Part shown: piece by piece, positions 3,104 to 56,392 of the stretch
Numbering within the stretch: the first letter of the stretch is position 1
How the letters are laid out: each line of letters starts with the position of its first letter
Assembly (NCBI GenBank): GCA_041662525.1
Contig: JBAZSF010000005.1
Span: forward strand, 1-56,528
DNA from: Minisyncoccota bacterium
Lineage (GTDB): Bacteria > Patescibacteriota > Minisyncoccia > Phycocordibacterales > UBA9973
Direction of reading: 5' to 3'
Length of the DNA stretch: 56,528 bases
Program-made: the position numbers and the translations under genes
Notes under the pieces: model-generated
What the model was told of the DNA's origin: nothing
What the model saw: only the letters and a program-made list of their open reading frames with translations
Database searches by the model: none

Positions 3104-4015
3104 ATGCAAATTATAGACGGAAAAAAAATAAGAGACGAGATTTTAAAAAAAGTGAAAGCAGAAGTAGGTGCGCTTTCTTTCAAGCCAGTCTTTTGTGATG
3201 TCTTGGTGGGCAATGATCCTGCATCTCTTCAATACGTGCAAATGAAAGGGCGTATGGCAGAATCTGTGGGTATAAGTTTTCATGAAGCAGATTTTTCTGC
3301 TTCAATATCAACTGAGGATTTAATAAAAGAAATAAAAGTTTTAAATAAAATTGAAAATATGTGTGGGATTATTATTCAGCTTCCATTACCAGAACATATC
3401 GATAGGCAAGTGGTATTGGATGCTATCGATTCACATCTTGATGTTGATTGTCTTGGTACGATTGCTAGTGAGAAATTTTACAGCGGGGTAAGTCCTGTAG
3501 GTTTTCCTACAGCGCTTGCTTGTATGGCATTATTGGATTCTTTGAATTTAAATTTTGAAGGCAAAAAAATTGTTGTTTTAGGGCGGGGATTATTGGTAGG
3601 AAAGCCAGTTGCAGCATTGCTTCAGTTCAGAAATTTATTTCCAGAAATTATTAGAAGTAAGACTGAAAACAAAGAAGAGCTTATCAAGCAAGCAGACATC
3701 ATAATCTCTGGAATTGGTAAGGGTAAATATATTACCGGTAATATGATTAAAAAGGGAGCAGTTTTAATAGATGCGGGTACTTCTGAAGACAATGGCTCGT
3801 TAGATGCTCGAAGGAGTATCGTCGGTGATGTTGATTTAGAATCTGTAAAAGATGTGGCAGAATATGTTTCTCCTGTTCCTGGAGGAGTAGGCCCAGTGAC
3901 TGTCGCGATGCTTTTGAATAATGTATTAACCGTGGCAAAAAGTTTTCCCCTACACCAGGAGAAGGGGAAATCCCCTTCTCCTGGTGTAGGGGAAGAAGGC
4001 AAACATTATGAATAA
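3104..4015 (+). CDS. folD: Bifunctional methylene-THF dehydrogenase/cyclohydrolase
   Basis: IDGK..RDEI, IIIQLPLP, DVDCL, GRGLLVGKP, SPVPGGVGPVT. Confidence 0.95.
   Translation: MQIIDGKKIRDEILKKVKAEVGALSFKPVFCDVLVGNDPASLQYVQMKGRMAESVGISFHEADFSASISTEDLIKEIKVLNKIENMCGIIIQLPLPEHIDRQVVLDAIDSHLDVDCLGTIASEKFYSGVSPVGFPTALACMALLDSLNLNFEGKKIVVLGRGLLVGKPVAALLQFRNLFPEIIRSKTENKEELIKQADIIISGIGKGKYITGNMIKKGAVLIDAGTSEDNGSLDARRSIVGDVDLESVKDVAEYVSPVPGGVGPVTVAMLLNNVLTVAKSFPLHQEKGKSPSPGVGEEGKHYE
3945..3994. repeat. Perfect 24-bp inverted repeat (two head-to-head copies of repeat family B) inside the folD 3' end
   Basis: TTCCCCTACACCAGGAGAAGGGGA-aa-TCCCCTTCTCCTGGTGTAGGGGAA; encodes FPLHQEKGKSPSPGVGE. Confidence 0.9.
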
Positions 4016-4559
4016 CACAATCTTTTTCTTTTTTAATAATTTAACACATCAGTCAAATATTTTTGATAGTATAGTTGTTTTTTTCGCAGTTTATTTTATA
4101 TATATAGTAATTATTTTAGCTGGATTGTATTTACTTTTTTATTATAAGATTTTATCTTCACAAAATCCTTTTAAACAATTTGCAAACAAATGGAGAGAAT
4201 TTTCTTTTGTAGGTTTGTCCGTAGGTGTTACATGGTTTTTTAATAAATTTATAGCAAAAATTTTATTTCACACATTTAGACCTTTTGTAGTTTTTCCGCA
4301 AATACAACCTCTTTTTTCAGAGACTGGATATGCTTTCCCTTCTGGACATACAGCAGTTGCTTCATCCTTAGCGTTTGCATTATTTTTTACAAATAAAAAA
4401 GTAGGCTCTATTTTTATATTCTTTGCTCTCCTCATTGGCTTAGCACGCGTTACTGCTGGAGTGCATTTTCCAATTGATATTTTGGGTGGGTTTGTTGTCG
4501 GTTTTGTCATAAGTTATATTTTTAGTTATATTTTTAATAACTTTTCTAAAAAATTATGA
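4008..4559 (+). CDS. PAP2-family phosphatase (BcrC-like)
   Basis: RPF, FPSGHT and ARVTAGVHFPIDILGG motifs. Confidence 0.9.
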   Translation: MNNTIFFFFNNLTHQSNIFDSIVVFFAVYFIYIVIILAGLYLLFYYKILSSQNPFKQFANKWREFSFVGLSVGVTWFFNKFIAKILFHTFRPFVVFPQIQPLFSETGYAFPSGHTAVASSLAFALFFTNKKVGSIFIFFALLIGLARVTAGVHFPIDILGGFVVGFVISYIFSYIFNNFSKKL

Positions 4560-8154: not shown

Positions 8155-9084
8155 ATGGCAACGCTATATACACAACAATCAAAAAATGTTACTAAAACTT
8201 GGCTACTCATGTCGGTGTTTTTTGTGGTGGTTATTGGTTTTGGTTGGTTTTTTAGTTTTTATTATAGTAATCCAAATATACTGTATTTCTTTGTCATCTT
8301 TAGTATTTTAATGAATTTTTTTTCTTATTGGTTTTCAGATAAAATTGTGCTTACTTTAGCTGGCGCAAAATTAGCTAAAAGAGAAGAATATTTTGATCTT
8401 TATACGAGTGTTGAGAACCTTTCAATTACAGCTGGACTGCCAATGCCAAAAGTATATGTGGTACAAGACTCTGCACCAAATGCTTTTGCTACAGGTAGAG
8501 ATAAAAACCATGCTGTTGTTTGTGCTACTACCGGACTTTTGCAAATTTTAAACAAAACTGAATTAGAAGGGGTAATTGCGCATGAACTTTCACATGTCGG
8601 GAATCGTGATATGTTGCTCTCCACTGTCGTTGTGGTACTTGTCGGCTTTATAACAATTCTCGCAGATTTTTTTACCAGAAGTTTATTTTTTGGTGGTTTT
8701 GGTAAAAATAGAGACAATGACAACAAAGGAAGTGGTGTACTTGTGATTATTGGAATTGTTTTGTCGATATTAGCACCACTTTTTGCAGTTTTAATTCAAC
8801 TAGCCATTTCTAGGAAACGTGAGTTTTTAGCTGATGCTTCTGGAGCATTACTTACTCGCTATCCAGAAGGTTTGGCGAATGCATTGCGTAAAATTTCTAA
8901 ATATAGTCAGCCAATGGCTCGTCAATCTAGCGCAATCGCACATCTGTATATTGCAGATCCAAAGGGATCAAAAATTGGTTTACCCGCCTCTGGCGGCGCC
9001 AAAGGCGACCAGGGTAAAAAAATCAGTGGATTTTTTGCCACCCATCCGCCAGTGGAAGAGAGAATAAAAGCATTGGTGGGATAG
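8155..9084 (+). CDS. htpX: HtpX-like M48 zinc metalloprotease
   Basis: PNAFATG, HELSH, SRKREFLAD, THPP; adjacent to lemA. Confidence 0.93.
   Translation: MATLYTQQSKNVTKTWLLMSVFFVVVIGFGWFFSFYYSNPNILYFFVIFSILMNFFSYWFSDKIVLTLAGAKLAKREEYFDLYTSVENLSITAGLPMPKVYVVQDSAPNAFATGRDKNHAVVCATTGLLQILNKTELEGVIAHELSHVGNRDMLLSTVVVVLVGFITILADFFTRSLFFGGFGKNRDNDNKGSGVLVIIGIVLSILAPLFAVLIQLAISRKREFLADASGALLTRYPEGLANALRKISKYSQPMARQSSAIAHLYIADPKGSKIGLPASGGAKGDQGKKISGFFATHPPVEERIKALVG
8983..9007 (+). repeat. Family A palindrome plus a second small hairpin, in frame in htpX (PASGGAKG)
   Basis: CCGCC-tct-GGCGG (reverse complement of the 5199-5211 13-mer), then CGCC-aaa-GGCG. Confidence 0.7.
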
Positions 9085-9110
9085 CAATGAATATTTATTT
9101 TAATTTATGC

Positions 9111-9130
9111 ATCTACGCTATGGCGTAGAT
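9111..9130. repeat. 20-bp palindrome, copy 1
   Basis: ATCTACGC-TATG-GCGTAGAT. Confidence 0.92.
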
Positions 9131-9160
9131 TAAAAATTGTTATATAATTTTTAGTAAAAT

Positions 9161-9784
9161 ATGAAAACTCTACCAATAGATCTCGACAGCTTTGGTTTTA
9201 TCGAAAGAGAAAAAAATAATTCTGGTAAATATATTTTAAATCGTTGTGGTAGAGATTTTTTATACTATTCACTCCATTATTTCTATCCGGATAAATACAA
9301 CTCATTTTCTAAAAATCCTCAATTTATTCATAAAAATAATATATTTGGTTTATCAACACATCCTTGGCTAGCTTTTGCCTTATTGCAATTTATTTATGTT
9401 CCCAAGGTGCTAAAAAAAGAAAATTTAAAATTATTAATAAATGATAAAATGATTAATTCCGCTATAGATTTTTATAGGGTTCTTTGGAGGCCTTTAAAGA
9501 TAGATATTGAGAAAAGAATAAAAGAAGTAGAATCTGCCATAGATCAGGGTTTTGTCGTTGGAATTGATATATCTTTATATTTTTTTGGAATTTTTGATCA
9601 CGTGATGTTTGTCTATGGTTGTGATGAAGATAATTTTTATATTTTTGATACCCGTAAAATTAAAATATTAGAATATGAGAAAATGACCAAAGATAATAGA
9701 TACATTATGAAACTACCGAAAGACATAATAAGAAAAAGATGGTCCCTGTTTGGAAGAATTTGGCTTATAAAAAAAATTATGTAG
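9161..9784 (+). CDS. Peptidase C39-like (papain-fold) protein
   Basis: NRCG ... DHVMFVYGCDEDNFYIFDT gives a Cys-His-Asp order like C39-like proteins. Confidence 0.6.
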   Translation: MKTLPIDLDSFGFIEREKNNSGKYILNRCGRDFLYYSLHYFYPDKYNSFSKNPQFIHKNNIFGLSTHPWLAFALLQFIYVPKVLKKENLKLLINDKMINSAIDFYRVLWRPLKIDIEKRIKEVESAIDQGFVVGIDISLYFFGIFDHVMFVYGCDEDNFYIFDTRKIKILEYEKMTKDNRYIMKLPKDIIRKRWSLFGRIWLIKKIM

Positions 9785-9793
9785 TAGTATTAT

Positions 9794-9813
9794 ATCTACG
9801 CTATAGCGTAGTT
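9794..9813. repeat. 20-bp palindrome, copy 2
   Basis: ATCTACGC-TATA-GCGTAGTT; the core 9796-9811 is a perfect 16-bp palindrome. Confidence 0.92.
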
Positions 9814-9842
9814 TAAAAAATAGTTATATAATTTATGTTATT

Positions 9843-10211
9843 ATGACTGGAAGAAAATTGAAATATAAAGGTATGTCGGTAAATATGTTTGGTTTACCTA
9901 GTTTCAGTGATTCTTATAAGGAAAATAAAATACTAAAAATACCTAAACGGAAATATCTTCAATCTTTTATTTCTGATTTTAAAAAAGATGCACCAAAAAA
10001 CTTACTTCTTATATATGATATTCCAGAAGGAAGAAAAAAAGAAAGAGATTGGTTTCGTCGCCAGCTTAGAAATTTTGATTTTGTTATGATCCAAAGAAGT
10101 GTTTGGGTTGGACCGTCGCCTCTCCCGGTAGAATTTCTTGCTTATTTAAAAAGAATTGGATTACAGAAAGAATTCAAAACATTCAAACTGGCCAAATCAT
10201 ATAAGACCTAA
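9843..10211 (+). CDS. Solo Cas2-like / PaaX C-terminal-like ferredoxin-fold protein
   Basis: LLLIYDIPEGRKKERDWFRRQLRNFDFVMIQRSVWV matches the YDI...R..L...GF..LQ.SVW pattern shared by Cas2 and PaaX. Confidence 0.75.
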   Translation: MTGRKLKYKGMSVNMFGLPSFSDSYKENKILKIPKRKYLQSFISDFKKDAPKNLLLIYDIPEGRKKERDWFRRQLRNFDFVMIQRSVWVGPSPLPVEFLAYLKRIGLQKEFKTFKLAKSYKT

Positions 10212-10230
10212 TCTACGCCATGGCGTAGAT
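10211..10230. repeat. 20-bp palindrome, copy 3 (perfect)
   Basis: ATCTACGCCATGGCGTAGAT; its first base is the last base of the TAA stop. Confidence 0.95.
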
Positions 10231-10275
10231 ATTTGTAATGTTTATTATTTTGAATTATTTTGATATACTTGTTGT

Positions 10276-10548
10276 ATGGAAATTAAAGATGTTGAAAATC
10301 TTGCTAATCTTGCTAGGATTGAACTCACAGAAGAAGAAAAAAAGGACTTACTTTCAGATATGGAGAGCATTTTAGGATACGTTAAACAAATTGAAGAAGT
10401 AAAAATAGAGGACGCAGAGCTAGATTATAAAGTTCACAATGTTTGGCGAGAGGACGAAATAATACCGCGAGATTTTTCAAGAGAATTAATTACAGATCAA
10501 TTCCCCGATGCCCAAGATGGGTTTTTGAAAGTGAAAAAGATTTTATGA
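10276..10548 (+). CDS. gatC: Asp/Glu-tRNA amidotransferase subunit C
   Basis: VENLANLARIEL...ILGYV...NVWRED; ATGA overlap with gatA. Confidence 0.92.
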   Translation: MEIKDVENLANLARIELTEEEKKDLLSDMESILGYVKQIEEVKIEDAELDYKVHNVWREDEIIPRDFSRELITDQFPDAQDGFLKVKKIL

Positions 10549-11963
10549 TTGATTTAAATACGCTTACTATTAAAGAGGCTAGAAAAAAATTAGACGCCAA
10601 AGAATTTTCCGCGGTAGATTTAGCGTCAGTTTATTTAGCCGAGATTGAAAAGAAAAATAAAGAGCTCAATGCATATTTGGAAGTTTTTGATGATGTATTA
10701 GAACAGGCAAAAGTGGCGGACGAAATGATCGCCAAGGGGGAGTCGTATCCATTACTCGGTATTCCACTTGCTATAAAAGATAATATTTTAATCCAAGGTA
10801 GAAAAGTTTCTGCTGCATCAAAAATGTTAGAAAATTATGTGGCTTCTTATGACGCGACGGTTATTGTTAAATTAAAAAAACAAGGAGCAATATTTTTAGG
10901 CAGAACGAACACAGATGAATTTGCGATGGGAGGTTCTACAGAAAATTCAGCTTATGGGGTAACAAAAAATCCTCACGACACATCGAGAGTAGCAGGAGGG
11001 TCTTCCGGTGGATCAGTGGTCGCGGTGGCTGCCAATATGGCCCTTGGGGCCTTAGGATCTGATACAGGAGGATCAGTACGAGAACCAGCGAGCTTTTGTG
11101 GAATAGTGGGAATGAAGCCCACATATGGGCGAGTTTCTCGATATGGTCTTATCTCTATGGGTTCATCTCTAGATTGTATCGGTTCTATCGCTAAAAACAC
11201 AACTGATGCAAAGATTATTTATGATTCTATTTATGGAAACGATGTACTGGATAGCACTAGTATCACTGAAAGTGCTTATCCAAAATTTTCTGCTAAAAAA
11301 ATAATTGGTGTGCCATGGGACTTAGTAAACGGAGAAGGTATTGATCCGAAAGTTAAAGAAAATTTTAAACAATCTATTGAAAAATTAGAAAATCTTGGTT
11401 TTGAAATTAAAGATATCTCTATTAAAAATCTTGATATTTCACTAGCAATTTATTACATCATTATGCCTGCTGAAGCGTCGACTAATCTTGCTCGTTTTGA
11501 TGGAGTGCGATACGGTTTACATAAGGAGGGTAAAAATTTATTGGAAGATTATATGTTAACCAAAGGAAAAGGTTTCGGAAAAGAAGTTCGTCGGAGAATA
11601 CTTTTGGGTACTTATGTGCTTTCTGCTGGTTACTATGACGCTTATTATGGTAAGGCTCAAAATATTCGTAGTGCCTTGAGAGAACAATTTAATAAAACAT
11701 TTCAAGATGTTGATATTGTGGCTACCCCGACTTCTCCTATACCAGCTTGGAAGATCGGAGAGAAAAGTGACCCACTTTCTATGTATTTAGCGGATATTTT
11801 TACCATTACGGCAAACATCGTCGGAGTGCCGGCCATTTCAGTGCCGTCAGGCTTTATGGAAATAGAAGAGAAGAAATTACCACTTGGAATTCAATTTATG
11901 GCGCCACACGGGGCAGAGGAAATGTTGTTTGAAGTTAGTCAGAAGTTTGAGGCAATGATATAA
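10545..11963 (+). CDS. gatA: Asp/Glu-tRNA amidotransferase subunit A
   Basis: PLAIKDNI, TDEFAMGGS, GGSSGGS, GSDTGGSVREPA, RRILLGTY; start re-assigned to 10545. Confidence 0.97.
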   Translation: MIDLNTLTIKEARKKLDAKEFSAVDLASVYLAEIEKKNKELNAYLEVFDDVLEQAKVADEMIAKGESYPLLGIPLAIKDNILIQGRKVSAASKMLENYVASYDATVIVKLKKQGAIFLGRTNTDEFAMGGSTENSAYGVTKNPHDTSRVAGGSSGGSVVAVAANMALGALGSDTGGSVREPASFCGIVGMKPTYGRVSRYGLISMGSSLDCIGSIAKNTTDAKIIYDSIYGNDVLDSTSITESAYPKFSAKKIIGVPWDLVNGEGIDPKVKENFKQSIEKLENLGFEIKDISIKNLDISLAIYYIIMPAEASTNLARFDGVRYGLHKEGKNLLEDYMLTKGKGFGKEVRRRILLGTYVLSAGYYDAYYGKAQNIRSALREQFNKTFQDVDIVATPTSPIPAWKIGEKSDPLSMYLADIFTITANIVGVPAISVPSGFMEIEEKKLPLGIQFMAPHGAEEMLFEVSQKFEAMI

Positions 11964-15380: not shown

Positions 15381-17204
15381 ATGTTTAAAAATACTTCAGA
15401 AACTGATGTCTCTATAACTGACCCTAGATTTATAAAAATTGGTCTGTTTCTTTTTTTCGTGTTTATTTTATTTGGAATTTTGGAGTCCAAGACTTTTGAA
15501 ATTAAATACAAAGATAGGTTTTACCCCGGTATTTTTATTGGTGGTGAATATGTCGGTGGGAAAACTTATTCTGAAGTCCTAAATAGTTTCAAAGAAAAAA
15601 AAGAGAAATTAGAGAAAAACGGGCTGAACGCAAATTTTACTAGCTCACGTGGAATACAAAAAGTAAATATTCCAATGAGCGTAATAGGAACTACCCCTGA
15701 TAACTCTGTGGAATATTTTTCGTTTGATGGTTGGGAAAATAATCTGGAGGAAGCTTATAGTTGGGGACATAATACAAACCTTTTTCTTAATCTAAAAGAA
15801 CAAACGATACTTTTATTCACAAAAAAATATTTTAATTTTACCAATTCAATACATAGAGAAGTAGTAGATCCTTTTTTGGAGGACAGAGTATATAATTTCC
15901 TAAATAAAAGTGCTCCAGCCGTGTTTTCTTTTACCTCGGGCAAAATAACTATTTTAAAAGAAGTAGAAGGAGAAAGTGTAAACAGGGAAGAAGTTTTGAA
16001 TATTTTAGAACAAAAGTTGAATTTATTTGACACAATACCCATAATTTTTACGACCGATCAGGATTTTCCTGTAGTTACCAAGGAAAAACTGGAACCCTTT
16101 TTGGATTCTGCGGAAATATTTACCAAGGGTAAAAATATAGTTTTTCAATATAAAGGACGTGAATGGAAGATAAAAGAGACTCAACTTATTTCTTGGCTAA
16201 CTGTAAATACAGAAAACGCCATCGATATTAATCAGATTAAACTCGAGGATTATCTAGCAAATACAGTGACAAAGTTTATAGATAGTCCTCCACAAAATAG
16301 TCGTTTTAAAATGCAAGATGGTAAATTGATTGAAACAGTTCCAGGCAAACCTGGGAATATCGTTGATGTGGACGACGTATTAGAAAAAATTAAAAAAGTA
16401 ATTTTCGAAACAAACGTAGAAGTTAAAAATAGTAGAATAAATATTCCTATAAAAACCATCGAAGTTGAGCCCAAGGTAACTCAAAATACCGTAGACAAAT
16501 ATAATATAGTCGATATTGTTGGAGAAATTCGTACCAGCTTTGATGGAAGTACCGCGAACCGTGAACACAATATAAAAATAGGAATTTCTATGATTGATGG
16601 AATGATAATACCTCCAGGGGCAGAATTTTCTACAGTAGCTTCAATTGGTCGTGTTACTGCGAAAGAAGGGTATTTGAAAGAACTGGTAATAAAAGAAAAT
16701 AAAACGACTAAGGAATATGGCGGAGGTTTATGTCAAATTGCTACTACTTTATTCCGTTTAGCATTGAACGCTGGACTTCCTATCACAGAAAGACAAAATC
16801 ATCGTTTCGTCGTTCATTATTATGATCCGCCTGGGCTTGATGCTACTATATATGGACCTCATCCTGATTTTCGTTTTGTTAACGACACAAATAACTATCT
16901 TCTTCTGCAGGCACGAGTGGAAAATAAGCAAGTGATTATGGAATTGTATGGACAAAAAGACGGTAGATCTTCAGAAATTTCTGAAGCTACTTTATATAAT
17001 AGAATTCCTGCTCCACCAACAAAATATGTACAAAGTGCAGAACTTCCAGTCGGACAAACAAAATGTACTGAAGTGCCACATGATGGCGTGACCACAGATG
17101 TTTTATACACTATTAAATATCTTGATGGGACAATAAAAGAAAGAAATTTCCACAGTATCTATCAACCTTGGCAAAAAGTATGTCTTATCGGTACTGCTTT
17201 ATAG
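15381..17204 (+). CDS. VanW-family protein with an N-terminal anchor and putative peptidoglycan-binding region
   Basis: NREHNI, EYGGGLCQIATTLFR, ERQNH, GLDATIY. Confidence 0.9.
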   Translation: MFKNTSETDVSITDPRFIKIGLFLFFVFILFGILESKTFEIKYKDRFYPGIFIGGEYVGGKTYSEVLNSFKEKKEKLEKNGLNANFTSSRGIQKVNIPMSVIGTTPDNSVEYFSFDGWENNLEEAYSWGHNTNLFLNLKEQTILLFTKKYFNFTNSIHREVVDPFLEDRVYNFLNKSAPAVFSFTSGKITILKEVEGESVNREEVLNILEQKLNLFDTIPIIFTTDQDFPVVTKEKLEPFLDSAEIFTKGKNIVFQYKGREWKIKETQLISWLTVNTENAIDINQIKLEDYLANTVTKFIDSPPQNSRFKMQDGKLIETVPGKPGNIVDVDDVLEKIKKVIFETNVEVKNSRINIPIKTIEVEPKVTQNTVDKYNIVDIVGEIRTSFDGSTANREHNIKIGISMIDGMIIPPGAEFSTVASIGRVTAKEGYLKELVIKENKTTKEYGGGLCQIATTLFRLALNAGLPITERQNHRFVVHYYDPPGLDATIYGPHPDFRFVNDTNNYLLLQARVENKQVIMELYGQKDGRSSEISEATLYNRIPAPPTKYVQSAELPVGQTKCTEVPHDGVTTDVLYTIKYLDGTIKERNFHSIYQPWQKVCLIGTAL

Positions 17205-17212
17205 AATTGATT

Positions 17213-17743
17213 TTAATTTGTTAAGGCGAGCACTTTTTTCTTTGTGTCAGGTTCTCGTATTACTATAAGTCTTTTTTTCCAACCCTTCATGAAATCACTA
17301 ATTGGAACAGTTCTTATTCCGTCACGTTTACCAGGATCATTGTAGTAGACCAATTTGTCATCAAACCCAGTTACAACAATTAGGTGGCCAAAAGGACTTT
17401 TAGGATTAAATCCTCTACGTATTGATGCGATAACCGGACCTTCTTTGACTGTATTTTTAAATTGGCTAAGAGCAGTTTCATTTTTAAATTTTGATAAATC
17501 AACAGTTTTTCCAACTAAACCGTATTTTACAGCTAAGGAAGCTAATCCTTGATGGCTCCAGCCGACGTTTTTAACATAAGCCCCACCCTTGAGAGCTTGC
17601 TCGAGTACTTTTTGTACGGATGTAGTATTTGGTTTATAAAATTCTACTATCATTGCTACGTCTGCTACTCCGCAGCCTTTTTGTTGCCAGGCAACAGATG
17701 AAATATCGCTGATTTGTGAATACAGCGGAACACTATAAGGCAT
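17213..17743 (-). CDS. C39-family peptidase-like protein
   Basis: VPLYSQ, GCG, GHLIVVTGFDDKLVYYNDP; start uncertain (17743 or 17755; track 17791). Confidence 0.85.
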   Translation of the reverse strand: MPYSVPLYSQISDISSVAWQQKGCGVADVAMIVEFYKPNTTSVQKVLEQALKGGAYVKNVGWSHQGLASLAVKYGLVGKTVDLSKFKNETALSQFKNTVKEGPVIASIRRGFNPKSPFGHLIVVTGFDDKLVYYNDPGKRDGIRTVPISDFMKGWKKRLIVIREPDTKKKVLALTN

Positions 17744-17951
17744 TATTGGTATCATATAGTACAATGGTAACAAGTGTGTCTTCAAAGTCAATGTTTTTTC
17801 ACTTTAATTTTCTTAAGTTGTAGGGTTAAAGCCTATTTTTTATGGTTTTTTAGGTAAATATGGTATAATAATTTATCTATTATTCTAAGATAAATCCCTT
17901 GTCGGGGATCTAAAAATTTTTATTTGTAAATATAAAAAGTAAATTTTAAAA

Positions 17952-31520: not shown

Positions 31521-33285
31521 AAATACTATCTATCAATTTTGCAAACCAATTTTTTTGCGGAATTTCTTTTTGCTCTGTTTGAGTTGGAATAGAGGGGGAA
31601 GGAGTAGTATTTATGGCTGTAGCTGTTAATGTTTCTTTTTTAATAAATTTTCTAGGATTTTTAACTACAATTTTTTCTACAGTCTCAATTTTTGGCTTTT
31701 CAAACTTTTGCATTATTTGATTCCAAGTTTTATCAGATAATACAGAAGCAACATAAGCAGTTTCCCAGATTTTATTATTTAAGTTATCGTTTTTCATTCC
31801 ACCATCAACGTCTTGTATTGTGGCTAGATAATTAAGTGGCGTGTTTTCTCCTTTTTTCCAATCTTCCACTTTTTCATTTAATGCGAGGATGCCTTCCATT
31901 GCCCAAGCCGTAGAGGAAACATTACCCCAACCACCATTTTCCTTTTGATTTTGTTTTAAGTATTCTCGCGCTTTTTTTAAACTTTCCCCTTCACCTGGTG
32001 AAGGGGAAAACACTGAAAGGGCTTCTATTGCTGCGCCAGTCATATCTACAGAATTATCCCAGGATCCGTTTTCATTCTGTGCTTTCAGAACAAAAGCTAT
32101 ATCGTCATTTATCATTTTATCAGTTATCATATAGCCAGCATTTTGTAAAACAATTAAAGCGAAAATATCATCATTGTCTTCATGGATATCTCCAAACTGT
32201 GTACCATCAAAACTAGTAATTATTTTTTCTATATAATTTTCACCATTTGTATTATATGGGTTAAGTCCAAGAGCCATTAATGCCATTGAATGTCTTTCAT
32301 AGTCTGTCAAAGATGGATTTTTTATTTTAGTTTCTTTCAGATATTTAGTTAATTTTGATATTTGTTCTGGATAATTTGCTGGTGCTAATGTTAAAGCTAC
32401 CCAATCTGTATATAAATCTTCACCAAAAGATCCGTTTTCTTTTTGTTGAGATGTTAAAAAGTCAAAAGCTTTTTTAAGATCAAAGATTGGTTCTGGCTCA
32501 GGTGTTGTGATAATAGGTGTAAAAACAAATCTACTGCCACCAGAGGAACGTGTAACTACTGGCTCTGGAATAGAATCAGGTTCAGGTTCTGGAACAGAAG
32601 TGGGTAGAATTGTTACAGTCAAGATTTCTGTTGGAAAATAAAAATCCTCTTTGATTCCAACATTGTATGATCCTGTCTCTAATGGTGTAAAAATTGCTTG
32701 ACCATTTGCGTCAACAGGTTGGACTTGAATTTCAGTAGGCGACCAAGGATTGTTGGGGTCTGGTTGTGTTACTCCTATATTTACACCTGTTAAAGCTAGC
32801 CAGTTATTATTTTGATAATCATAATCTTGCGCATTTACTGATAAAATATCATTTGTATTTATTGAATTAGAGCTTAGAATTATTTTGTGGTGTGGTCCAA
32901 AATAAAAATAAAGATTTTCCCCACCGGAAAGAATTTTTTGGTCTATTGCATCAAAAGGATAAGAATCATTTACAGTATATTGCCAATCATCACAACTACT
33001 ATTTATACATTTTAAATAAAATCCCATACTAGAATATTGCAAATCTGTAATTGAAAAATTATCGCTTAAAATATCTGCATCTGTTAATACCGAAAGAACA
33101 CTATTGGCACCAACATCGTGTCCTTGTATTTGAATTGTTCCAGGTATTTGAAGTGGAACAGCTCCGGAATAAATAATATTAGCTCCGTCTCGTATGGTTA
33201 GATTAACATCTGCGGCCAAAACAACATTTTTCCCGACAAAAAGTAATGCTACTAATAAAACTATTTTAATAATTTGATTTTTCAT
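31507..33285 (-). CDS. Secreted protein: DUF4430-like domain, Pro-rich linker, prenyltransferase/squalene-cyclase-type alpha-barrel
   Basis: Signal-like N-terminus (start 33285); WQYTVN; four QxxNG(S/G)(W/F)-type repeats. Confidence 0.75.
   Translation of the reverse strand: MKNQIIKIVLLVALLFVGKNVVLAADVNLTIRDGANIIYSGAVPLQIPGTIQIQGHDVGANSVLSVLTDADILSDNFSITDLQYSSMGFYLKCINSSCDDWQYTVNDSYPFDAIDQKILSGGENLYFYFGPHHKIILSSNSINTNDILSVNAQDYDYQNNNWLALTGVNIGVTQPDPNNPWSPTEIQVQPVDANGQAIFTPLETGSYNVGIKEDFYFPTEILTVTILPTSVPEPEPDSIPEPVVTRSSGGSRFVFTPIITTPEPEPIFDLKKAFDFLTSQQKENGSFGEDLYTDWVALTLAPANYPEQISKLTKYLKETKIKNPSLTDYERHSMALMALGLNPYNTNGENYIEKIITSFDGTQFGDIHEDNDDIFALIVLQNAGYMITDKMINDDIAFVLKAQNENGSWDNSVDMTGAAIEALSVFSPSPGEGESLKKAREYLKQNQKENGGWGNVSSTAWAMEGILALNEKVEDWKKGENTPLNYLATIQDVDGGMKNDNLNNKIWETAYVASVLSDKTWNQIMQKFEKPKIETVEKIVVKNPRKFIKKETLTATAINTTPSPSIPTQTEQKEIPQKNWFAKLIDSIFSIF
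31983..32009. repeat. Family B palindrome, in frame (SPSPGEGE)
   Basis: TTTCCCCTTCACC-t-GGTGAAGGGGAAA; two mismatches to the folD unit. Confidence 0.85.
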
Positions 33286-55909: not shown

Positions 55910-56392
55910 TTAATAACCAAAATTTGAGCAAGGTACTTCAGGAAGACTGAGAGTACCTTTTTCTTGATTCACGCTCGCTGTATTTTTTCCTAAAATTATT
56001 TTGACTTTTTCTGTGTCGGTAACACCAGTAAAAGTAAACCAATCTAGATCAATAGTTCGGGTCATCGTATTTTGATCAAATACCCCCACTACACCTTTGA
56101 CCTCTCCTGTTCTTGGATCTTCTTCAGCCGGTAATAAATTTAGTTCACCTATTACTTGTTCTCCATTTAAAATTAAACGCAAAGTATATTTATCAGAATT
56201 CCCATTACTATTCGAAGTGCTAAATTTTGCAAAGCAAAATTCTTCCTGCGCTACATCTTTTTTATTTGTAACATTAATATTTTTTTCAACCATTTTAGTA
56301 ATCACTGGCGCTACTACTTCTTTATTCTTAAGAAAATAAAAGATTCCAAAAACGACACCTACGATAATAATGAAAGACAGTATTTTTTTCAT
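55910..56392 (-). CDS. Membrane-anchored hypothetical protein
   Basis: N-terminal TM segment and a beta-rich soluble domain. Confidence 0.6.
   Translation of the reverse strand: MKKILSFIIIVGVVFGIFYFLKNKEVVAPVITKMVEKNINVTNKKDVAQEEFCFAKFSTSNSNGNSDKYTLRLILNGEQVIGELNLLPAEEDPRTGEVKGVVGVFDQNTMTRTIDLDWFTFTGVTDTEKVKIILGKNTASVNQEKGTLSLPEVPCSNFGY

Follow-up and report, generated by a model that had tools for sequence, protein, structure and literature searches.

What do three closely similar 20-bp palindromes do at the ends of two consecutive genes, the second of which encodes a solo Cas2-like protein, in the genome of a Minisyncoccota bacterium? The arrangement lies between htpX and gatC on a 56.5-kb stretch of DNA (contig JBAZSF010000005.1), the whole of which is hereafter termed the window. 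The palindrome is denoted P and the 122-aa Cas2-fold protein family CAS2L, a name given for this analysis; the loci compared with the window carry L-numbers. The three window palindromes are local copies of an element conserved across many ultra-small bacteria (Paceibacteria) of the candidate phyla radiation (CPR). Linkage to the gene, a fixed promoter geometry and co-variation with the protein, with chance and plain terminators ruled out, indicate that P is, as far as can be judged from sequence, the partner site of CAS2L. The interpretation given most weight here, tentatively, is that P serves as the recognition site of the adjacent CAS2L and that P, a -10 promoter, CAS2L and a second P form a conserved self-contained unit in Paceibacteria.

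Within the window, the motif ATCTACGC-NATN-GCGTAG(A/T)T is confined to three positions, 9111-9130, 9794-9813 and 10211-10230. A pattern search with ATCTACGCNNNNGCGTAGWT returned these three sites at 0 mismatches, the sole further match (30896) being weak, with 2 mismatches; shuffling gave a mean chance expectation of 0.02 matches, and none of 100 shuffles reached 7. A search of the whole window with the 16-nt core returned the identical three sites. The locus is composed of the following features.

8155..9084, plus strand: htpX, encoding an M48 peptidase (Pfam Peptidase_M48, 1.1e-32); left border of the variable slot.
9111..9130, no strand: palindrome copy 1 (ATCTACGCTATGGCGTAGAT), 26 nt past the htpX stop and 12 nt before TATAAT.
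9143..9148, plus strand: TATAAT, -10 box of ORF207, within a segment nearly duplicating the one after copy 2.
9161..9784, plus strand: ORF207, an open reading frame (ORF) of 207 aa; accessory gene with a weak C39/BtrH_N-like peptidase signal (Pfam BtrH_N, 0.085).
9794..9813, no strand: palindrome copy 2 (ATCTACGCTATAGCGTAGTT), 9 nt past the ORF207 stop; conserved upstream site of CAS2L.
9827..9832, plus strand: TATAAT, -10 box of CAS2L, 13 nt past copy 2 and 10 nt before the ATG.
9843..10211, plus strand: CAS2L, 122 aa, Cas2 fold / PaaX_M domain (Pfam, Foldseek and conserved residues).
10211..10230, no strand: palindrome copy 3 (ATCTACGCCATGGCGTAGAT); conserved downstream site with a 1-nt overlap with the CAS2L stop.
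10261..10269, plus strand: TGATATACT, extended -10 box 6 nt before the gatC ATG; gatC's own promoter.
10276..10548, plus strand: gatC (Pfam GatC, 4.2e-15); right border of the slot.

An earlier note on this DNA, made from the sequence alone, had described most of this layout, and the pattern search and shuffles bear out its claim of three palindromes at these positions only. Its gaps of 26 nt (htpX TAG, 9082-9084) and 9 nt (ORF207 TAG, 9782-9784) between stop codon and palindrome are correct; the third (CAS2L TAA, 10209-10211), given there as 0, is -1 nt, because the last A of the CAS2L TAA belongs to the palindrome too. The copies are 20-bp palindromes as described, except that copy 2 is imperfect (GCGTAGTT) and its RNA stem is therefore of 6 bp and not 8. 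Copy 1 is followed by TAAAAATTGTTATATAATTT and copy 2 by TAAAAAATAGTTATATAATTT, near-identical 20-nt segments holding TATAAT 12 and 13 nt past the palindrome, respectively, also in agreement with that note. Its assignments of htpX and gatC were confirmed by Pfam, and its Cas2/PaaX-like gene between copies 2 and 3 scores above the Pfam cut-offs for both PaaX_M and CRISPR_Cas2. Likewise, no Cas1 or integrase domain was found in the 20 mid-sized window ORFs tested, and no CRISPR-like repeat array in the window.

The RNA hairpin of copy 1 has a folding energy of -10.4 kcal/mol. A simple terminator scan flagged copy 3 as terminator-like and did not flag copies 1 and 2; an outer stem extension is absent from all three, and an Rfam search of 8900-10400 gave no match at E<=1. 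A -35 box inside the palindrome was considered and rejected, as correctly spaced hexamers match TTGACA at ~2/6 positions only.

The association of P with CAS2L was evaluated in 80 loci fetched from species-representative genomes. The element AT[C/T/A]TACGC-NATN-GCGTA[G/A/T]AT lies upstream of a CAS2L homolog in 71 genes, ending 23-29 nt before the start codon in 68 of them, and TATAAT follows 12-13 nt past the palindrome, 6-8 nt before the ATG. The downstream palindrome is located -18 to +54 nt from the CAS2L stop in most loci, and at up to about +70 in a few. P brackets the CAS2L homologs of ~70/81 genome loci, and a detector blind to the motif found matched palindromes at both ends of 67/103 CAS2L genes as compared to 7/1155 other genes. 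The upstream and downstream copies of one gene agree at 18.6/20 positions, the corresponding values for permuted pairs being 15.9 on average and 16.5 at most (2000 permutations). The palindrome is 20/20 identical between genomes whose core proteins are 55-85% identical, and its centre is TATA or CATG in 90/117 copies (25% expected). Since near-leaderless promoters with a -10 box only are common in the window, the CAS2L promoter is probably of that type, with a -10 box, no -35 box and almost no leader, which would place the palindrome centre near -36.

Protein and site also change together. Sites of the ATC, ATT or ATA type follow the clades of the CAS2L protein tree, and divergent members carry symmetric site variants at both gene ends (ATTTGCGC..GCGCAAAT, AAGTAAGC..GCTTACTT, ATCTCCAC..GTGGAGAT and ATATGCGC..GCGCATAT). 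Homologs missed by the motif search have very different palindromes, which are again matched upstream and downstream (ATCTCCACCATGGTGGAGAT, CAATTCAACCATGGTTGAATTG and ATCTCAGC..GCTGAGAT); the fully symmetric ATCTCAGC..GCTGAGAT site was found in L027. The survey of related genes proposed in the earlier note has yielded both the flanking palindromes and the co-variation of repeat and protein.

A profile search of 1.84 billion cluster representatives revealed 1901 relatives, many of them 155-200 aa long. These long relatives contain a ~40-aa insert between the YKGxxVNxFGLP motif and the Cas2-like domain, with a winged-helix-like pattern (L..LKK.GY....LT.KG) and weak matches to Pfam HTH_45. Alignment to 160-aa relatives demonstrated that the 122-aa CAS2L has no L..LKK.GY...LT.KG segment; it is thus the shorter, derived form, without the original recognition helix and wing. 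Each of the four long forms in the fetched loci has its own palindrome upstream and downstream (ACACGGCCGTGT core, TTTCACACACCTGTGAAA, TTGCTATAGCAA core and CAGACGGCCGTCTG), unrelated to P, and the upstream one overlaps the core promoter, ~26-28 nt from the ATG. As matched palindromes surround the long forms too, bracketing by an own palindrome is the rule for the wider family.

Some sites depart from symmetry. In a recurrent variant the 5' half (relative to the gene) reads AT.TCAGC for AT.TACGC, giving two adjacent hairpin mismatches; it was recorded in L002, L011, L020, L023, L037, L059, L060, L063, L064, L073 and L079, and also in a clade with the downstream copy at -18. L034 and L079 have reciprocal hybrid sites at the two ends of the gene, recalling attL/attR. 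Such hybrids were not taken to prove site-specific recombination, because most TCAGC..GCGTA hybrids flank the gene on both sides in the same orientation; only L034 and L079 fit, and L057 and L058 do not.

The domain assignment of CAS2L was based on profile and structure searches. It scores 50.1 bits against Pfam PaaX_M (PF20803; cut-off 24; residues 55-116) and 26.9 bits against CRISPR_Cas2 (cut-off 23.8). Its score of 22.8 bits against NCBIfam TIGR01573, the Cas2 equivalog, is under the cut-off of 24.5, and CAS2L is therefore a Cas2 homolog and not an equivalog; against the PaaX equivalog TIGR02277 it scores 13.7 bits (cut-off 264.55). Winged-helix and PaaX_C domains were not matched in the Pfam search. 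Every top Foldseek match is a Cas2 or VapD structure, and the AlphaFold model displays the Cas2 ferredoxin fold over residues 54-115. The alignment of homologs has 40 invariant positions, including D59, at the position of the Cas2 catalytic Asp, with no conserved His pair among them; the N-terminal motif YKGxSVNxFGLP is conserved.

More than 1800 CAS2L homologs were found, the best 120 being 73-91% identical; the named ones belong to Paceibacteria/Nomurabacteria-type CPR bacteria, and source annotations are limited to hypothetical, Cas2 or PaaX-like. Genomes carry 2-3 paralogs that are mutually 55-70% identical, and in loci sharing the window synteny the conservation of CAS2L is similar to that of HtpX and LemA and exceeds that of GatA. 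A viral origin was rejected, no homolog being present in 2.9 million viral contigs. Conservation like that of HtpX and LemA, absence from viral contigs and the divergence of the paralogs all suggest that CAS2L behaves as a host gene under purifying selection. A defence system was also rejected, since PADLOC yields weak partial Cas2 matches only, without partner proteins. Recurrent positions of the gene are htpX-[variable genes]-CAS2L-gatCA, folD-CAS2L-PAP2, the region after smc, and that past rpsL and rpsG (assigned by size and order) before a presumed fusA. In L026 (4001-4356) CAS2L is split in two frames (query residues 1-95 and 98-120) by a frameshift or an assembly error; the palindromes are still on both sides, with ORF207 downstream.

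The distribution of P apart from the protein was determined by scanning metagenome contigs with the exact 20-mer, followed by a second search of the loci so found with up to 2 mismatches. This census gave 165 sites in 120 loci, of which 44 flank CAS2L, 76 are unlinked (450 nt or more of sequence on each side) and 45 lie too close to the end of a contig to be classed. The density of solo copies is ~1 per 70-100 kb in the DNA examined, and the window has none besides copy 1. The earlier note had set against its own proposal a palindrome scattered with no link to the gene family; P is indeed dispersed (76 unlinked against 44 gene-linked sites), yet its link to the family is very strong.

Solo copies are intergenic, within ~30 nt of stop codons, and more frequent between convergent (37) than divergent (13) gene pairs. 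The same junctions are reused in different contigs, for example hpf->P<-fmt, the position after smc and the spacers of tandem ~570-aa genes of no known function. Many solo copies cap a longer hairpin whose stem is preceded by an A tract and followed by a T tract, resembling a bidirectional terminator. P is predicted to fold in RNA as an 8-bp stem closed by a 4-nt loop (-10 to -11 kcal/mol), the extended versions reaching -25 to -28. At least 3 extra base pairs of variable outer stem are present in ~40% of copies as against 1.6% expected, and these stems covary (e.g. cccc/gggg, cac/gtg). A strand-bias test on stems and extensions gave 10 G-U versus 3 A-C pairs for downstream copies and 7 versus 9 for upstream ones, with in-stem mismatches trending in the opposite direction.

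Two further arrangements were encountered. Tandem paralogous genes of ~570 aa with no Pfam match are separated by ~35-nt spacers consisting almost wholly of one palindrome, which leaves 6-9 nt to the preceding stop codon and 6-16 nt to the following ATG (L109 4386, L134 3517, L145 311, L150 6228, L087 679 and L100 1490); as the palindrome takes up the spacer, there is no space for a separate promoter. Mixed site types (ATC, ATA, ATT and TCAGC hybrids) cluster 30-90 nt apart in single intergenic regions of L102, L104 (1-245), L119, L153, L156, L178, L182 and L200; L104 has four palindromes within 240 nt at a contig end.

Comparison of orthologous junctions shows the P-CAS2L-P unit either complete or missing as a whole. 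The folD/PAP2 junction has neither P nor CAS2L in the window, where the genes overlap (4008-4015), and in L177, and is filled by the unit in L035 and others. The junction 3' of smc holds a solo P in L085 and L175, and the unit in L075. One slot can carry CAS2L of different clades, and one clade can occupy different slots. Near-identical paralogs were observed as one pair only, in L057 and L058 (both 3960-4440), which come from the same metagenome-assembled genome (MFWB01) and have different genomic contexts. Their homology begins exactly at the outer limit of the upstream hairpin and stops ~10 nt beyond the downstream hairpin, at ~95% identity from codon 7 to the downstream palindrome and ~70% over the upstream palindrome, promoter and first codons. 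The pattern suggests gene conversion from one paralogous unit to the other, though a mixture of strains in the bin might also account for it.

The folD/PAP2 junction of the window, which in L035, L043 and L061 is filled by P-CAS2L-P, contains a perfect 24+24-nt inverted repeat at 3945-3994 (TTCCCCTACACCAGGAGAAGGGGA / TCCCCTTCTCCTGGTGTAGGGGAA, arms 2 nt apart). It falls within the final 24 codons of folD, immediately ahead of the point where the overlapping PAP2 gene begins. An ORF on the minus strand contains a related hairpin, TTTCCCCTTCACC-T-GGTGAAGGGGAAA, at 31983-32009.

The slot between htpX and gatC (left-hand neighbour of CAS2L in 12 related loci and right-hand neighbour in 11, respectively) varies in content by genome, from CAS2L alone to CAS2L plus extra genes encoding TauE, LysE, a PRK-like kinase, ORF207, an unrelated 237-aa product or proteins with no known domain. 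The comparison of this slot, also proposed in the earlier note, disclosed variable genes, about half of them bounded by P: P is on both sides of 6 of the ~12 accessory genes, and the other six have no P on one side. Arrays never exceed two genes. ORF207 precedes CAS2L in the window, L001 and L018 and follows it in L026 and L060. The htpX-ORF207 spacer of L001, the closest relative, has no P, and another hairpin is found there at 3278-3308 (AATTTCGCAA-GGGGAGTGT-TTGCGAAATT), whose arms resemble the palindrome variant AATTTCGCGATCGCGAAATT flanking CAS2L of L070. L018 has P before ORF207 and no promoter copy after it. Because L001 has no P and L018 no promoter copy there, the near-identical segments 9111-9150 and 9794-9834 are attributed to a recent local duplication or conversion in the window lineage, which gives ORF207 a CAS2L-type promoter.

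Excised or deleted alleles, which the earlier note had suggested looking for, did not appear: the Logan contigs of two groundwater metagenomes in which this strain is present have no P-to-P joints and are colinear over 8982-10660, a weak negative, as contigs drop rare variants. The only joints in these contigs are in conserved paralog parts from other community members. The public runs containing the window sequence are all DNA metagenomes, with no RNA run among them.

The association, the fixed geometry, the protein-site co-variation, the places where solo copies lie and the finding that the unit is either there or missing as a whole are direct observations; from them we infer binding, autoregulation and a role in termination as follows. 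CAS2L, presumably dimeric like Cas2 and PaaX, would bind the two-fold symmetric P. The upstream P would be centred ~36 bp before the transcription start, and its occupancy would control CAS2L's own transcription, probably as autorepression and possibly with looping to the stop-codon copy ~400 bp away. At gene 3' ends P would act as a terminator or insulator, by a transcript hairpin, a bound-protein roadblock or both; this role would extend to the copy past the CAS2L stop, to the additional one behind htpX and to solo copies at other places. The three window copies would delimit two separately promoted transcription units, ORF207 and CAS2L, in a variable slot, ORF207 having acquired a near-copy of the palindrome-plus-promoter segment of CAS2L.

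Recognition of double-stranded DNA by a dimer is considered the most likely mode, because the symmetry runs through the centre (TATA or CATG) and the spacing to the -10 box is the most constant feature, because the upstream P would not be transcribed from CAS2L's own promoter, and because the ancestral long forms have a winged helix and promoter-overlapping palindromes. Several observations weigh against it. The N-terminal 50 residues of CAS2L are disordered in the AlphaFold model (predicted local distance difference test score, pLDDT, below 50), and the 122-aa protein has no recognition helix and wing of the kind kept by its longer relatives. The recurrent asymmetric half-sites, with TCAGC on the 5' side, are a further difficulty. 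Certain solo copies are found in the spacers of tandem genes with just 6-16 nt left to the following ATG, a placement poorly suited to a terminator or a roadblock. Lastly, the covarying outer stems indicate selection on a folded single strand, RNA or single-stranded DNA, which a pure double-stranded operator would not need. The stems and the tandem-gene copies keep single-strand models alive.

One such model, possible though rather doubtful, is that P functions in RNA, as a transcript stem-loop bound or cut by CAS2L which sets mRNA 3' ends, stability or processing. It agrees with the folding energies, the extended hairpins and the covarying outer stems with A/T tracts, with copies directly past stop codons, and with the tandem-gene copies 6-16 nt before the ATG in a near-leaderless lineage; the fold relatives Cas2 and VapD include ribonucleases, and the RNA hairpin formed by a perfect palindrome is identical whichever strand is transcribed, as would be fitting where two genes converge. 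It does not explain why the upstream P, whose -10 spacing is the most conserved feature, lies before the inferred CAS2L transcription start, nor the winged-helix insert and core-promoter palindromes of the long relatives, and region 8900-10400 has no Rfam match. Alternatively, CAS2L may be a domesticated hairpin-specific nuclease, comparable to the RAYT transposases of repetitive extragenic palindromic (REP) sequences, which recognises folded single-stranded P and spreads P and the P-bounded unit; the flanking copies would then mark the termini of what was once a minimal mobile element, and the solo copies would be its non-autonomous derivatives in terminators. We regard this as unlikely, even though an origin or activity of this sort is made plausible by the way the unit is present or missing as a whole and by the invariance of the Asp that corresponds to the catalytic one of Cas2. 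Flanking palindromes of its own, a repeat type per paralog, vertical inheritance and 3' extragenic repeats with A/T runs were all seen, along with whole-unit presence or absence at the orthologous folD/PAP2 and smc junctions, homology of two units in one genome bounded by the outer palindrome edges, and covarying outer stems. However, no HUH/Y1 transposase domain was found in CAS2L by Pfam, the copy number is low (~1 solo copy per 70-100 kb), the single near-identical paralog pair resembles gene conversion rather than transposition, two metagenome assemblies gave no excision joints, and catalysis of strand transfer is not known for any Cas2-fold protein. The broader proposition of a Cas2-fold family that recognises, co-evolves with and maybe cuts or spreads its own flanking palindromes, in a REP/RAYT-like or proto-CRISPR-like manner, is likewise improbable, to about the same degree.

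Capture of whole genes as cassettes between htpX and gatC, with the palindromes as recombination sites, was one of the suggestions of the earlier note and is highly improbable. The variable slot genes, six of ~12 P-bounded on both sides, the placement of ORF207 before or after CAS2L and the sites hybrid between half-site types, e.g. in L034 and L079, could be read in its favour. But no integrase or Cas1 was found in the window ORFs tested, arrays do not exceed two genes, the supposed cassettes have their own promoters, six accessory genes have no P on one side, P-to-P joints are absent from the two assemblies, and the genes next to most solo copies are conserved housekeeping genes, hpf/fmt and smc among them; local duplication of a repeated terminator in a region of ordinary variability accounts for what is seen here too. 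Ordinary look-alike intrinsic terminators with no dedicated protein are the least credible alternative, hardly to be entertained: copy 3 is terminator-like and many solo copies have A/T tracts, yet terminators need not keep 20/20 identical bases across genomes with 55-85% identical core proteins, and near-exclusive bracketing of one family, co-variation and the fixed -10 distance contradict the idea. Among the three readings offered in the earlier note, sites for the Cas2/PaaX-like protein fit best, given the bracketing, the co-variation and the position over the putative -35 region. The RNA-hairpin reading is less probable, and the covarying outer stems with A/T tracts and the tandem-gene copies speak for it.

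Among known systems, the closest analogue of the CAS2L/P pair is REP/RAYT. In RAYT/REPIN systems the gene is flanked by its own palindromes, with a repeat type per paralog and vertical, conserved inheritance, and the repeats lie in extragenic 3' regions with A/T runs suggesting terminator use, the paralogs being few, old and distinct (PMC3337134). CAS2L has all of this in common with them, the short gene (~400-500 bp), own flanking palindromes with a type per paralog, few old and distinct paralogs, vertical inheritance and A/T-flanked extragenic 3' repeats. Unlike RAYT it has a Cas2 fold / PaaX_M domain, with no HUH or catalytic-Tyr motif found; there are few P copies per genome rather than hundreds, P is a perfect 20-bp palindrome rather than a REP doublet, and the upstream P is built into the CAS2L promoter at a fixed distance. 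PaaX repressors resemble CAS2L in the Cas2-like PaaX_M domain, and its long relatives in a winged-helix-like N-terminal segment and a palindrome over the promoter, whereas the 122-aa CAS2L has neither the winged helix nor the C-terminal PaaX domain and no link to phenylacetate genes; PaaX is not known to have either an additional stop-codon site or solo terminator sites.

With Cas2 and VapD, CAS2L has in common the ferredoxin-like fold, the conserved Asp ending strand 1 and a QxSVW-type strand, and a Cas2 homolog between two copies of a palindromic repeat is a conceptual echo of CRISPR. In contrast to CRISPR-associated Cas2, there is no cas1, array or other cas gene by CAS2L in the window, where its neighbours are htpX, ORF207 and gatCA, and the P copies are 400-680 bp apart, enclosing genes; the recognisable neighbours in the 80 related loci, which were not screened for cas genes, are housekeeping genes. 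Unlike VapD toxins, it has no antitoxin partner beside it. LacI, GalR and DeoR are looping autorepressors with operators flanking the controlled unit, and the likeness consists in a pair of identical sites of two-fold symmetry, separated by a few hundred bp, with one covering the promoter. CAS2L belongs to another protein family, its distal P is exactly at the gene 3' end and terminator-like, and extra P sites lie between convergent genes, with no promoter to control. Integron cassettes are promoterless and depend on the IntI tyrosine recombinase and imperfect attC hairpins; here, perfect 20-bp palindromes occur with no integrase in the ORFs tested, and both genes have their own TATAAT.

Two operator assignments for the downstream copy were considered and rejected. 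Copy 3 is not taken as a gatC operator, because the distance from the palindrome to the gatC ATG varies (45-54 nt) across loci and downstream copies are also found ahead of convergently oriented genes. Similarly, the downstream palindrome is not taken as a fusA operator, its distance to the fusA TTGACA box varying between 17 and 36 nt.

The gene content of the window is that of an ordinary chromosome (FtsW/RodA, FolD, PAP2, SecDF, LemA, HtpX, GatCA, release factor, FtsEX and G6PD). Near-leaderless starts are frequent in it: just 6-7 nt separate the end of a TATAAT-like box from the ATG, and a Shine-Dalgarno sequence is missing (examples at 15381, 44540, 10276 and, on the minus strand, 55910-56392), and a GGAGG-like site is present at a few starts only (29414, 42407 and 43983); near-leaderless mRNAs appear to be the norm in the source organism. 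Homologs of ORF207 number 53, the named ones coming from Paceibacteria-type (Parcubacteria-group) bacteria, and that of L026 matches Peptidase_C39_2 weakly (0.0067). A 192-aa Peptidase_C39_2 protein (3e-14) is encoded at 17213-17791 on the minus strand, 7 kb from ORF207, and the two may be distant paralogs.

CAS2L/P is most likely an undescribed system of a protein plus its recognition site, and not a CRISPR-like or integron-like capture array. Such a protein-palindrome mechanism did not surface in full-text searches of PubMed Central or bioRxiv; the pairing of a protein with flanking and dispersed palindromes is known as such, and we rate as new the Cas2 fold and the promoter wiring. CPR bacteria (Patescibacteria) have tiny genomes, and little is known of their gene regulation. 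A conserved small protein with 2-3 distinct copies per genome, each tied to its own 20-bp site and situated at core operon boundaries (gatCAB, rpsG-fusA, folD and smc), points to lineage-wide delimiting or control of transcription units. Several natural protein/site pairs with no shared sequences could also serve as regulatory parts. CAS2L and P further provide a concrete pair for studying a Cas2-fold protein outside CRISPR. The biochemical role of Cas2 has long been debated. If CAS2L binds or cuts the repeat, this would bear on how Cas2 became associated with palindromic repeats, and, if the repeat-protein partnership is true, Cas2 homologs can have a repeat-specific function independent of Cas1.

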